Source of the DNA: Lingula anatina
Taxonomy: Eukaryota > Animalia > Brachiopoda
Assembly: GCA_051362555.1 (NCBI GenBank)
Contig: CM120642.1
Span: forward strand, 27,280,001-27,344,000
Direction of reading: 5' to 3'
Length of the DNA: 64,000 bases
In this document: positions 22,501 through 31,500 of the stretch, piece by piece
Numbering within the stretch: the first letter of the stretch is position 1
Layout: every line of letters begins with the position of its first letter
Program-made: the position numbers and the translations under genes
The notes under the pieces: generated by a model
Database searches by the model: none
Told to the model about the DNA's origin: nothing
Seen by the model: the letters and a program-made list of their open reading frames with translations, nothing else

Positions 22501-25500
22501 TTTTAAAGCTTTACTCTACACATGCAAGGGTTGGATTGACCATTATTATCAACATCACAAAGAGTTTTAATGACAGGTGCATATCGCAAAAATAAAATCC
22601 CAAAACAGATTTTCGATTCATCGACAAGTTGAAAACATCTTCCCTAATCATTTGATATGACAAAATCAAACTCTCACTGAGCCTGGCCCTTACCCTAGTG
22701 TCTGTGACCAGTTGAGTTCCCAGCTGGAAAGGCTGGTACTGTGACACAGTGATGATCACTGGAGGGCTGGGAATGTTCCCAGACACGTCAACCAGGGCAC
22801 CAATGTTAGGGGAGTCACTGGTCGGCTGCAGCTGCTGTGGACGCACCTTGCACACATTGGGCGCCTCCCCCATGGCCACGGAGAACACCATATCACCCAT
22901 GCTGGTGTCCTGCTGTCCACTGACCACCTGCTGCTGTTGTTGTTGCTGACTGCTGCTGGCCAGACTGGCGTTGGTCAGCATCTCTGCGGCTACAGCAGCT
23001 GTGTTGTTCAGGTCCATGGCAGTGGAGACCATGTTGGCCTCAGCGGAGATGTCACTGCTGCTGCCATCTATGTTATTGTCAAAGTATGTGACAACGGTGC
23101 TGCTGTTGACTGAACTGGTGCTGGTGGTGATGGCACTGCTGTGGACACTGAAATTATAACCATAAAGGAATTTAATAGAAAAAAATTTTCAAAGAGCTAG
23201 TTTGATCACTTAAGAGAGATTCACTGTGAAATAGACATCTTGCCAAGGGAACCGTTTTGGATTATTTTGGATTAATTTACGTAAAATGACCAAGCACGAG
23301 AGTTGCAAATAATGACACGTGCCTACAAGACGTGTTTAACTACATTCTACAGATCCTCTGAACTGGTTTAAGTCTTGCTACATCCTAACTATGTCAATTT
23401 CAACATACCCGTGTTCAAACACTGTGGACATGGGTGTCTCCCACATACTCTTCACAGCAGCTATCTTCATGCCCAGGTCAGAGGCAGGGGAGTTGGGAGA
23501 CAGGGGTCCTGCCATCTTGTCCTGTGCCAGGGACATGCTGCCCTTGCCTGGCCTCACTATGCCACTAGACTCCTTACTGTCTGTGGGATCATCTGCAAGC
23601 TTGGCCAACTCCTCGTCAAAGGTAAACTCTAGCTTCAGCTCTGCAGATTCTTCGTTCTATAAACATAACAAGCCATTATAACACACCAGCTTATTTAGAT
23701 TATAGTTATAAGGGCTGATGGTAAGCATATGAATACTGTTAATTTGTTTTCTAATTTTTCATTAAAAAAACTGATCTTGTTTCTGATTATGATCTCAGTT
23801 TTTCATTTTAGTTCAACTTTTTCTTTTTTTGTCAAACCATAGGTTGACATAGCCCAAAGCACCTAATCCATTTACCTGCGACAGGCTGAAAGAGCCAAAT
23901 GTAGCTGGAAACTGGATGGGCTCCACTTTGTTCTCCTTCCTTGGTGTGCGACTAAGTTCCTCTGCCTTGTTTCCAGCACCCTTGGACTGGTGTTCTTGTT
24001 GTTTGACAGCATCATATGTGGCACTGCTCAGAGCATCAGCTGCCAACTCTTCACTCAGCTGCAAAGTTTACAGCATGTACCGATTACTACTCATTTCAGT
24101 TGTAAACAAATAGATTTATCATTTCAAATGGCACTTGGACAAAATAAAGAGCAAGTGAGGCAGTAAAATGCAAACATAAGTAATAGAATGGCTTGAAATA
24201 TGTATTCATGAAGGAGGCATAAAACTAAATATAAGTACAGCCATCAGGTAGATGGGTGATGAGTTATGTCTTCTTTGCCATAGCATCTGCTGTGTTGTAA
24301 GTCATCATATGGCTGAATTCTTCAAGTCTACAGAACTTCACAACTGAGCTCACAGCCACACATTCCAGTCATACCTGTGCTATCTTGCTCTCATTGCCAG
24401 GAGAGCTCCTTCTGGAAGAGGGAGCAGAATTGTTCATGTCGTTCATGTCAATGCCACTGTCATGCTGATCATTCTTGTCAAACTTCTGCTCTCCCAGCGG
24501 TTCAGCTATCCCCATCTGAGCAGAGAAGGTGATGGGTTTGTCCCAGGCATTCACTGGCACGCTAGGCAACAGGCTGGTTGGAACGGAGGGTGTCACACTG
24601 GCTAGGGAGTCTGTGCGAGGAAAGAAACAAAAATAAAATAGCTGTAACCTTCTATAATTATCAAAATTAAATCTTTTCAAGGAATTTAACAATTTGTAAT
24701 GTGATTTTTCTATATTTACATACACATAAAATATTGATAAGCCATCAGTCTAGTGGGTGATGAGTATTGTCTTCTTTGCCAAGGCATCTGCTTTATTGAA
24801 AGTCATCATCTGGCTCAAAGTGATTCCTACTTTATTCTTAAACTATGCCAAACAAGGTTGCACATTTAACCATATCCTCACAAATACCTAAAATAAACAA
24901 CTTACGCTTGGCCTCCACTTCCATGATGCTAGGTCCCCCTGACATTGGAATGTTGTTGGCCAGCTCGTTATCCCAGTTCTCTATCTTTGGCATGAACACA
25001 TTGGTGTTGTTGTTTTTGTTATTTTCACGCTCCCTCTCTCTCTGCTCTTTCTGCTTGGCCAGTCTTGGGGGCAGCTTGCTGAACTTGCCACCACCACCGC
25101 CGCTGAGTTTCTCACCAGAATTTACTATGGGGGAGGCTGCTACTCTTGGCTTTGAGGACAGCACCTTAAAAAATGGCCAATAATGTCTATCATTTTTGTT
25201 TGGTGGTGATCAAACAGGATAAAACCTGAATATCTCCAACCTTTGACACATGGTTTATTTTTATTATATAAGCTGTGATGAAATGTTTGCTCAGAGTCAA
25301 GTTAGATTATTATATCACGGTCATTCATTGGATTGACAGATTTTTCTAACACATCATCATAGCAAACACAAAGATGGAAATACACGAAAGCCAACTGCTC
25401 CTACCTTTGACAGCAGGTCTTTCTCCTTTTTACCCTTCTGATCCGAGACTTTCTTAGTCAGCAGTGTTTCTTTTGTCTTCTTGGTGGACTTTTTGTAGGA

Positions 25501-28500: not shown

Positions 28501-31500
28501 CAAAGTATGCATGTCAGTTTCAAATATATATTAAACTAGAATATGGAACCAGAAACACAATAGGCACTGTAAAAATTCGTCACATTCAATATACTTTAAT
28601 ATACTCCGTAAGAGTCAAAACAACATAAGTTGAAGTATAAAGACTTACTTCTCCCTTTCTTTTGTTTCTTCTTGTGGCTTTTCATTTTCCTTATTCTCTT
28701 TGATTGGTGATATCTTGGTGAGAGATTCCTGAAAGATAAACACAAAGTTTTGGTGATAACTTGGTGAGAGATTCCTGAAAGATAAACACTAAGTTTATTA
28801 CAGAAGTATTTCAATATAGGATATGGACCTTTTGTCCCCTCAACATTTTTCGATGCTAGAACATTTTTGCCTTTAGTAAGTGAAGAAATACCAACCTTGC
28901 TGGAGGATTTGTCCTTTTGTGGTGGTCTTCCCCATGGACTCTCCTGTTTTGGAGATTCAGTTTTCCTTTCTCCAGTATTGCTGGAATTGGTGGAAATATT
29001 GGAGGAGGACCTCTTCAGAGAAGTGTAGTTACTCCTTGGAGGTAAATTTTTCTCAGCCACTTTTGAAGGAATGGGAACTGGGGCATTTGGTCGACCTTCA
29101 ATGAAGAAAAGTTGTCAACACTAAGTGTTCAGAAACAGTATTGGTTGAATATTTGGCAGTCTGTTTGATAAATGCAAGCACTACTCTTAACTGCAACATG
29201 CAACCAGATGAAGTTCAATGCTTACAGTAATTTTTTTTCTTTTAAAATGGACCTTGTTAAATGGGTTATTGCATTTTTTCATCAAAAGCAAAAGCATCAA
29301 AAGCATACCCCGTGGCCTATGTTCCTCAGGTAACTGAAAAGGAGTGTCACTCCAAGCTTCCTCCTTTCTTCCCCGTTCCTCCTCTCTGCTACGTTCATTC
29401 CTGTCATTTCTTCGAGAGGGGAAGTCTTTTCCTCTATCTTGATCTCTTGGGCGATCTTCACGGTCGGGCCGCTCCCTCCTACGATCTTGTTCTGAACCAC
29501 GGCTACCATGGCTCTCACGACTGTCATGGCGTTCTCTGCTCTTGGGATCTGGTTGTCTGAAAAATGGACAATGTATATATAAGGCAAGGTCTACTTAAGA
29601 CAACTCAATAACAAAACCATTTTGGTTAAAGATCTTATATACACATCCTTAGCAATTTGACATTTATATATGAGATTCAGCAATTTAAAATCGACTCATC
29701 TGAGCAGCCATCAATAAGATGGGTGATGAGTCTTGTCTTCTCTGCTAAAGCATCTGTCATATTTGCAATCATCATCAGGCTGACCCTTACTTATCTTAGA
29801 AGTTTGAGAAGGCTCCATCTTACCTATCCTCTCTTCTTGAATGAAAGAAGTCGGACCCATCTTCAAATGGATCCTTTTGCACCACGGGCGGTTTTCTGGG
29901 TCCCATGTCTCTCTGGCCATCCCTGTCCCTCTTATCCAAATTCCTGTTCTCCCTCTCTGGCTCTGAAGATTTGGGCCTGTCCATATCTCGTGGGATTTTT
30001 TCACCTTCTCTTGGACCATTTTCCTTTTCTTCCTCTTTGCCTTTATCACCATCCCTGACAGAGGAGATTCAATTATGAAATTTGAGTAATTTGCACAATC
30101 ATTAAAAAAAAAAAAAACTCATTTGCATAAACTTGGAGAAAAGAACACTTGTGTGACATGGGTTTTGCTTTTGGAATGGACATTTCTTCTCATAAAAATT
30201 TTTGATTCCAGAATTTTTCTTAATATTCTCACTCTTACCTTTCAAAATCAGCTCTTCTGTTTTCATATTCTCTTCTCTCTCTTTCCCATTCCTTGTAGTG
30301 CTGCTCGTAGTATCTCCTCATCTCTTCAAAAGCCCCTAGAAATATGCAAAATGACATTCCCATTTTTATTTGACTTTTTTTCTGCAACAATTAAGTCTAT
30401 TCTTCTTTAAAAATTTAGACAAGCATTTGAACACCACAAACCCTATCACAACTGGCCTTGCACAATTTAAAGTACCCCTACCAACACATATGGGTTTCAG
30501 AATATTTCTGACCATCCTGTCCGTCTGTCTGCAGTGTATATAAATCAGTGTTCTCCAAACACTCCTAACACAATACTGTAATAAGTGGGCCTTACAAACC
30601 TGGGTGCATGGGGCCATATGGAGGGCGGTCCATCCAGTGCCGCGGATCTCGGTCATAGGGCGGAAACTCGGGGGTTCTGGGGCCATGGTCAGGGTGGCCG
30701 TCCCCAGACTCCCCACGACTATCTGTGCGGCCCCGCCTCTGCATCCCAGGGTACATTGGCATGCCTGCAAGGCAACAGGCCACTTCTGGTTAAGTCAAGA
30801 GTTTCCAACAGGCACAACACCAAATGTGTACAACAACAAAAAGGGGGTTACTACAACAGTGACATATCTGCCTATCATTGGACGGGCGAAAAAACACCAG
30901 GTCGAAGCTATGAAGCAATGGTGTGCAAACATGCAAGCAGCAATTGATTAACCCATGTGCTGTCAGCAAACAGGCATGCCAATGTGAACAACCCATCCCA
31001 TTCCCGTCTACAACAGACAACATTCAACAAGGGTCCATCAAGACTACGACATCAAGTAAGCGCCCAAATCAACACCTAAACCATAACTATTCAATCCCTT
31101 TTCATAGAACATGTTAGGAGAAAACAAAGGCATTCTGTGACAAATAGACTTCTGCCTTATATGTGCAGTGCTGTCCAACTTGGCTGTGCAAGCACATTGT
31201 ACAGAAAAATTTCAATGCCTCACAAATCAGTACAGTAGCAGCAGGACCAACCAATTTACAACTAGAACTATAAGTAAGCTCATGCATGGACAAAATACAT
31301 TCACAGGTGGTCTTCAACTGGACTATTCTTACTAACACCATCATGCACCAAACTGCATGCACTCCTACTCTCTCACTTATAATTTAAACTAAGCCCTACA
31401 CCAACATGCAGTAATCGTAGAATAAAATTTAACATCAACAAAGAAGGACACCTTTACTCAAAATCAGTTATTCCATAAAAACAAAAATCAACAGCACAGT

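Follow-up and report, generated by a model that had tools for sequence, protein, structure and literature searches.

What is the role of a short sequence that is held unchanged in several intronic RNAs while the bases around it diverge? The question is raised by a stretch of 64,000 nucleotides (nt) from the brachiopod Lingula anatina (GCA_051362555.1, contig CM120642.1, positions 27,280,001 to 27,344,000; the window hereafter), in which three copies of a small nucleolar RNA (snoRNA) of the box C/D class carry the same 12-nt element. The analysis described below suggests that the copies belong to the same family as the vertebrate snoRNAs SNORD84 and SNORD117 and the fly snoRNA Or-CD11, that the element is directed to a site in 18S ribosomal RNA (rRNA) just 5′ of the acetylated cytidine of helix 34 and, tentatively, that it serves acetylation of that cytidine.

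Three intronic box C/D snoRNA genes with an invariant element

A preliminary description of this DNA had reported three intronic paralogues with conserved boxes and an invariant 12-mer, and inspection of the sequence located all three, on the minus strand, exactly where they had been placed:

24238..24315, minus strand: copy 1, a U83/U84-like box C/D snoRNA gene (RF00137, 23.7 bits), within intron 24059-24374
24302-24308 (box C), 24286-24289 (box D′), 24268-24274 (C′-like box) and 24244-24247 (box D), minus strand: boxes of copy 1, which also has a terminal stem
24253..24264, minus strand: the 12-mer of copy 1, a conserved antisense element that spans D+6 to D+17 and for which pairing with 18S 1319-1328/9 is predicted
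24740..24815, minus strand: copy 2, with box C at 24803-24809 and box D at 24745-24748, within intron 24611-24905
24754..24765, minus strand: conserved antisense element of copy 2, an exact match to the 12-mer
29705..29782, minus strand: copy 3, with box C at 29769-29775 and the variant box D UUGA at 29711-29714, within intron 29557-29823
29720..29731, minus strand: conserved antisense element of copy 3, an exact match to the 12-mer

Each copy is built in the same order, namely a terminal stem (5-7 bp), box C, a CAGA box D′, a short hairpin, a C′-like AGAAGAC, the 12-mer, five variable bases and box D. The 12-mer has three exact occurrences, while no exact match at all arose in 100 shuffles. 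Among the three copies every column is invariant in box C (7/7), box D′ (4/4), the C′-like box (7/7) and the 12-mer (12/12); the corresponding values are 4/12 in the spacer from box C to D′, 1/3 in another spacer, 0/5 at D+1 to D+5, and 2/20 (5′) and 4/20 in the flanks. The final A of the 12-mer is D+6, as originally stated, and five nt separate the element from box D. What had been said of these five positions and of box D stands in part: D+1 to D+5 do vary, D+4 and D+5 being restricted to C or U across the three copies, and box C is present in all of them, whereas box D is CUGA in two copies and UUGA in copy 3. A model built from the three copies scored them at 71-76 bits by construction and its next match at 5.6 bits, and a fourth copy is thus absent from the window. 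Furthermore, a near-match to the 12-mer at an exon start (24046-24057) is at chance level, as seven matches with at most two mismatches were found, a number equalled in 25 of 100 shuffles.

Spliced reads from four RNA runs (long-RNA libraries, placed over 22400-30060 only) define the three GT-AG introns of a minus-strand transcript, each of which contains one copy on the sense strand of the host, 129-179 nt upstream of the 3′ splice site. Read depth over the intron of copy 3 was zero, a value which in these libraries carries no information on small RNA. The three copies are real intronic box C/D snoRNA genes.

Relationship to SNORD84/SNORD117 and Or-CD11

An Rfam scan, suggested in the preliminary description, returned no match in the window at the gathering thresholds; below these, it returned matches of the copies to two described families. 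RF00137 was the top match for all three (copy 2, 34.9 bits, E 4.5e-4; copy 3, 26.2 bits; copy 1, 23.7 bits; threshold 35), and was followed by RF00538 (snoCD11; copy 2, 24.9 bits; copy 3, 20.0 bits; threshold 60). The implied novelty of the family is not upheld by this similarity, which lies just below threshold in the first case and well below it in the second. Neither family supplies a known canonical target, RF00137 and RF00538 both being still orphans. RF00137 comprises mouse Snord117 and Snord84 (U83/U84), each given as an orphan (PMC11863803); the host of SNORD117 and SNORD84 is DDX39B (PMC4696412) and their target has been given as unknown (PMC3349704). The fly representatives, Or-CD11a/b (renamed CD64a/b), are expressed orphans with RpL28 as host (PMC11014333), in an arrangement that has been termed exonic (PMC5932544).

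With RF00137 the copies share their size, a GCCA/UGGC stem, a short hairpin between D′ and C′, and AUCACCC between C′ and D. They differ from it in the element itself (UCU in mouse, CUC here), which is located 2 nt farther from box D, in the AGAAGA C′ box, in the PRRC2-type host and in the presence of three copies. With RF00538 they share a GAAGAC C′ box followed by UCAUCACCCA and box D, whereas the fly terminal stem is A/U-rich and the fly element is 2 nt nearer box D. As a separate observation, the GCCA/UGGC terminal stem of copies 1 and 2 (5′ ends at 24311-24314 and 24811-24814) is identical to that of mouse Snord84/117 despite the different host, and GCCA is complementary to the four 18S bases immediately 5′ of the acetylated C; it does not occur in the fly consensus or in the two homologues L005 and L015 described below, and the 5′ side of the copy 3 stem is GCCU.

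A metagenome scan with the family pattern yielded 19 loci, of which 17 were dropped as chance, having the pattern match only. The other two, L005 and L015, display the full C/D layout within an intron, with the same element at the same five-base spacing and RPS5 as host. The RPS5 exon of L005 is 94% identical to vertebrate proteins, so the L005 and L015 hosts are taken to be animals, and at the stretch of the L005 homologue RF00538 (22.8 bits) and RF00137 were the top two matches. The same pattern had no match in viral contigs, and a large PRRC2 exon used as a homologue query gave no match. Two minor features of the metagenome loci may be added: a SNORD24-like element is located in the next RPS5 intron of both (L005 ~3340-3379, scored; L015 ~3361-3396, by eye), and the 5′ part of the L005 homologue (2955-2990) is SNORD43-like (19.5 bits), possibly a second guide before D′, or chance.

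Judged by sequence, the three copies are likely homologous to SNORD117/SNORD84 and to fly Or-CD11. Since the thresholds are missed, they are better termed U83/U84-like than formal members of RF00137. A single family would then extend over vertebrates, flies, two other animals and the brachiopod, in four hosts (PRRC2-type, RPS5, RpL28 and DDX39B). In relation to the open-access literature searched, and among the matches listed there, the family was already known, while the link between RF00137 and RF00538, the shift in register and the comparison with yeast snR4 (both below) are new.

Predicted pairing with 18S rRNA upstream of the helix-34 CCG

Across the family the element reads A-Y-Y-Y-AUCACCC, the variable positions being CUC in the present copies, UUC in the consensus of the fly family and UCU in mouse Snord117/84. 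This variation, confined to C and U, fits a G-rich target that tolerates either pyrimidine. The analysis of the target drew on 40 eukaryotic 18S-bearing loci (among the matches listed), nine of which are annotated, and 18S positions are in human numbering unless another species is named. The perfect complement of the 12-mer was found in none of these 40 loci. Of the 38 18S fragments with enough sequence (among the loci listed), 32 retain UGGGUGGUGG unchanged just ahead of the helix-34 CCG. Positions 1319-1328 constitute the longest contiguous match of the element in ten of the 12 longer ribosomal DNA (rDNA) loci, the site being altered in the other two, and their duplex is the lowest in energy when a complete 18S, one 5.8S and 2.9 kb of 28S are scanned. 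The energies of the duplexes between element and 18S range from -19.4 to -20.6 kcal/mol. As an aside, the loci L020-L059 show eukaryotic 18S rDNA to be present in two viral contigs and in 38 or more contigs of prokaryote genomes (~460 estimated), a contamination of those collections.

The shuffle statistics for this site are modest, and published chimeric enhanced crosslinking and immunoprecipitation (eCLIP) data constitute the stronger evidence. Of six significant rows for SNORD117, five (two mouse, three human) lie on this 18S region (PMC11863803, Table S1). The mouse rows, 45S 5302-5359 and 5309-5356, correspond to 18S 1295-1352 and 1302-1349 (calibrated by U1326 = 5333; PMC11863803), and the human rows are marked 'predicted' (PMC11863803), indicating that the contact between SNORD117 and 18S was already in a database. 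Among the three possibilities raised in the preliminary description, the first, a non-canonical 18S-binding element near the SNORD33/SNORD32 sites, is supported by the rRNA scans, the duplex energy and SNORD117 eCLIP.

A candidate guide for helix-34 acetylation

Eukaryotic 18S rRNA carries two acetylcytidines; the guide for the one in helix 45 is SNORD13 in animals, while a guide for the one in helix 34 is known in budding yeast only (PMC9670809, PMC9226516). This yeast guide, snR4, specifies acetylcytidine ac4C1280 by means of GS2, located 3′ of the C′ box and paired with 18S 1264-1271, and of GS1 at its 5′ end, paired with 1286-1290; mutation of GS1 abolishes acetylation and mutation of GS2 reduces it by 88% (PMC5464676). 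Yeast 1264-1271 equals human 1321-1328, because Um1269 and Gm1271 correspond to Um1326 and Gm1328. GS2, UCACCACC (PMC5464676, S1 Table), shares seven of eight letters with UCAUCACC of the copies described here, the remaining change being wobble-compatible. In both RNAs, an internal element 3′ of the C′ box would cover the same 18S octamer, the two duplexes ending at the same G, G1328, 8 nt before the acetylated C. The predicted duplex (1319-1328/9) is positioned 5′ of the CCG and leaves the target unpaired, as is expected of an acetylation guide. Conversely, snR4 is much longer and possesses a helix, a pseudoknot and a 5′ guide that it cannot do without, and the Rfam scan revealed no overall resemblance to it at the copies; the comparison proposes that they work alike, not that they are homologous.

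A second likeness is offered by dipteran SNORD13 (Or-CD1), an acetylation guide of ordinary SNORD outline whose one internal element is located 5′ of the target C; in the fly, acetylation is guided with this internal element alone (PMC9226516). It differs in its helix-45 target, its length of ~110 nt, its cap and its own transcription (PMC9226516). In C. elegans, the helix-34 CCG is kept and the mark is absent (PMC9226516), which suggests that helix-34 acetylation depends on a trans-acting factor. S. carpocapsae is likewise devoid of the helix-34 mark (PMC9226516). The authors of the SNORD13 study ask whether a helix-34 guide is needed outside yeast and whether uncharacterised intronic SNORDs act as acetylation guides (PMC9226516); a human counterpart of snR4 was called unidentified in 2022 (PMC9670809), and a 2026 paper names a human guide for C1842 only (PMC13433802). 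In the open-access literature, no link between SNORD84/SNORD117 and acetylation was found among the matches listed, and searches in the text or supplements of PMC12645875, PMC12724518, PMC13228274, PMC12848939 and PMC13651129, and in supplement 1 of PMC11863803, yielded nothing relevant.

The mechanism that we prefer, as a tentative candidate, is that the family comprises single-element helix-34 acetylation guides, which would act as GS2 of snR4 does and expose human C1337 to NAT10. The RNA would very probably be released from the spliced intron as a ~70-nt small nucleolar ribonucleoprotein (snoRNP). Its element would, in all likelihood, pair with 18S 1319-1328 through eight Watson-Crick and two G-U pairs, plus two pairs past one bulged U, and, given that site, would probably direct no methylation. 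Provided that these steps hold, the chances appear evenly balanced that C1337 would be presented to NAT10 by way of the 8-nt unpaired stretch. The three copies here, the two vertebrate genes and the fly genes (at least two) would be redundant. With slightly more reserve, SNORD84/SNORD117, fly Or-CD11 and the trio may be regarded as one ancient bilaterian family and the animal counterpart of snR4, i.e. a minimal ~70-nt intronic guide with a single wobble-rich element, masked by its duplicates.

Several findings weigh against this proposal. With regard to the family, every Rfam score of the three copies is under threshold. With regard to the site, 26 of 200 shuffled 12-mers reach an equally good rRNA site, the duplex alone therefore not being significant; for one of the five elements (copy 3) the best score fell on another, weaker site in 18S, located just 3′ of the CCG; and pairing was computed on the rRNA of other organisms (L033 and others), over 18S, 5.8S and the 5′ part of 28S. 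Additionally, the eCLIP peaks are 50-70 nt wide and overlap those of SNORD33, SNORD84 has no significant row, and one SNORD117 row is in 28S (PMC11863803). With regard to architecture, the copies are small compared with snR4 and no counterpart of GS1 was found, since 425-992 of 1000 shuffles paired with 18S 1339-1353 as well as the regions from box C to C′ did. Similarly, no second antisense element was found in a 5′ extension, the 5′ flanks being unconserved; such an element is dispensable in Diptera. The copies have neither the helix nor the pseudoknot of snR4/snR45, and an element that ends 5 nt before box D leaves no room for them. Finally, SNORD33/snR55 and SNORD32/snR40 are methylation guides that bind the same 18S stretch (PMC5464676, PMC11863803), and the likeness to GS2 is imposed by the target, since any RNA pairing with this stretch must resemble GS2, as snR55 does. 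These box C/D RNAs resemble the copies in pairing with an overlapping stretch, and differ in being canonical D+5 methylation guides for U1326 (SNORD33/snR55) and G1328 (SNORD32A/snR40); the SNORD33/SNORD32A-type Rfam family scored on a neighbouring SNORD110-like copy only and on none of the three copies.

Alternative roles of the family

A non-catalytic role of the same family at the same 18S site is nearly as likely as acetylation guidance. As a chaperone or gatekeeper, the RNA could hold the 5′ strand of helix 33/34 open, or time the access of SNORD33/SNORD32 to U1326 and G1328. All of the evidence for the 18S target fits this possibility equally well, the site overlaps Um1326 and Gm1328, and the architecture of an acetylation guide is missing from the copies; furthermore, Song et al. 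mention methylation-independent roles for novel peaks (PMC11863803), and the host is shared with two SNORD110-like guides for 18S U1288, ~30 nt upstream. However, such a role leaves unexplained why the contiguous duplex stops at G1328, where GS2 of snR4 also ends, and leaves the animal helix-34 guide unaccounted for.

It is unlikely that the family acts instead as a weak or conditional guide of 2′-O-methylation, which by the D+5 rule would address the 1318-equivalent G here and G1320 in vertebrates and flies. Against the 18S of L033, another organism's sequence of CGGUGGGU type, the three copies do pair from D+4 to D+15, 12 nt unbroken, yet D+3 is mismatched in all five copies compared. D+5 is C or U in each of the five invertebrate copies, an argument from pyrimidines at D+4 and D+5 that is weakened by C-U changes being the commonest mutations, and the box D of copy 3 is UUGA. 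Jady and Kiss reportedly found in 2000 that U84 is able to methylate an artificial substrate. In the core register, D+5 is opposite 18S 1318 in each of the five invertebrate copies; in mouse and fly, where the element is 2 nt nearer box D, it is opposite 1320, the distance between element and box varying from 3 to 5 nt across the family. A methylation that is conserved would hold the register; what the shifted register conserves would be the 18S site and not a methylated nucleotide. In published data, fibrillarin was the bait that caught the SNORD117 chimeras (PMC11863803), but the novel mouse sites that are named as methylated, in a list that opens with 'including', do not comprise one of Snord117 (PMC11863803). 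The fly 18S table contains Um1357 and Gm1359 (human 1326 and 1328) and nothing at the predicted 1351, Or-CD11 being without methylation at its predicted position (PMC11014333). The role of the family is probably not methylation.

A somewhat more improbable possibility is that the target is another RNA (a small nuclear RNA, transfer RNA, messenger RNA or the remaining 28S), or that the element acts in cis on the splicing of its host. The insignificance of the 18S duplex taken alone, and an invariant 5′ AC that pairs only via a bulge, would be compatible with this, as would the SNORD117 eCLIP peak in 28S (PMC11863803) and a report that SNORD84 folds with its host intron near an alternative exon (PMC10324135). 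A role in cis does not explain, however, why the element is kept across four hosts, the best site in the pre-mRNA of the present host is 9 nt only, and the other five SNORD117 rows are on 18S (PMC11863803).

The two remaining possibilities of the preliminary description, that the element acts in trans and blocks the box C of another snoRNA, or forms a switch by blocking that of its own RNA, are very improbable. The perfect complement of the 12-mer does contain a box C, and naked-RNA folds of copy 1 and L005 pair UCAUCA with box C. The mouse element, UCUAUCACCC, has no box C complement, and this breaks the reading of the element as an 'anti-box C'. Self-pairing would amount to 5-6 bp at -4.4 to -6.6 kcal/mol, as against the energies given above for 18S, in folds no stabler than shuffles (z -0.93 to +0.45), and would leave the invariant CCCA unexplained; in the snoRNP, moreover, box C is protein-bound. 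Equally improbable is that the copies are unexpressed relics, since, although the reads are from long-RNA libraries, leaving the small RNAs without read evidence, and copy 3 has a variant box D, the boxes and the element are invariant where the spacers have diverged, the same layout recurs in L005 and L015, and the fly homologues are expressed (PMC11014333).

Significance

The locus would bridge two orphan families that Rfam keeps separately, RF00137 and RF00538, and extend them to a lophotrochozoan. Human SNORD84 and SNORD117 and the fly CD64 copies can be named as candidate helix-34 guide genes. Should acetylation guidance prove wrong, the orphan family would still gain a likely conserved, methylation-independent rRNA site. 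Loss of a single ac4C mark has had little phenotype so far (PMC9226516), and the physiological stakes are accordingly limited.

Host gene and neighbouring features

An exon of a neighbouring gene is 99% identical to a Lingula anatina protein. The host of the copies appears to be of PRRC2 type. The BAT2_N domain (Pfam PF07001, E 2.2e-21 and 1.1e-4) was detected on open reading frames 35415-35702 and 34526-34900, on the same strand as the snoRNAs, and these exons are presumably continuous with the snoRNA-bearing introns:

34526..35702, minus strand: BAT2_N-encoding exons of the PRRC2-type host
48067-48405, minus strand: neighbouring gene for a FOXRED1-like FAD-dependent oxidoreductase
62317-62679, plus strand: neighbouring ankyrin-repeat gene

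Neighbouring introns of the same host contain two SNORD110-like C/D snoRNAs on the minus strand, at 25287-25365 and 26023-26100 (34.2 and 33.8 bits against a threshold of 64). Their D′ guide fits the 18S U1288 region with a 12-nt run, ~30 nt 5′ of the site proposed for the trio, and the pair has in common the 9-nt AAUCUAACU before box D, which is without a clear rRNA target. Finally, CTG-repeat length variants occur at 22928-22948 and 28363-28383, where a non-canonical joint of 22948 to 28363, with extra letters and loose ends, was observed in three runs; this joint probably represents reads of another repeat-bearing transcript.

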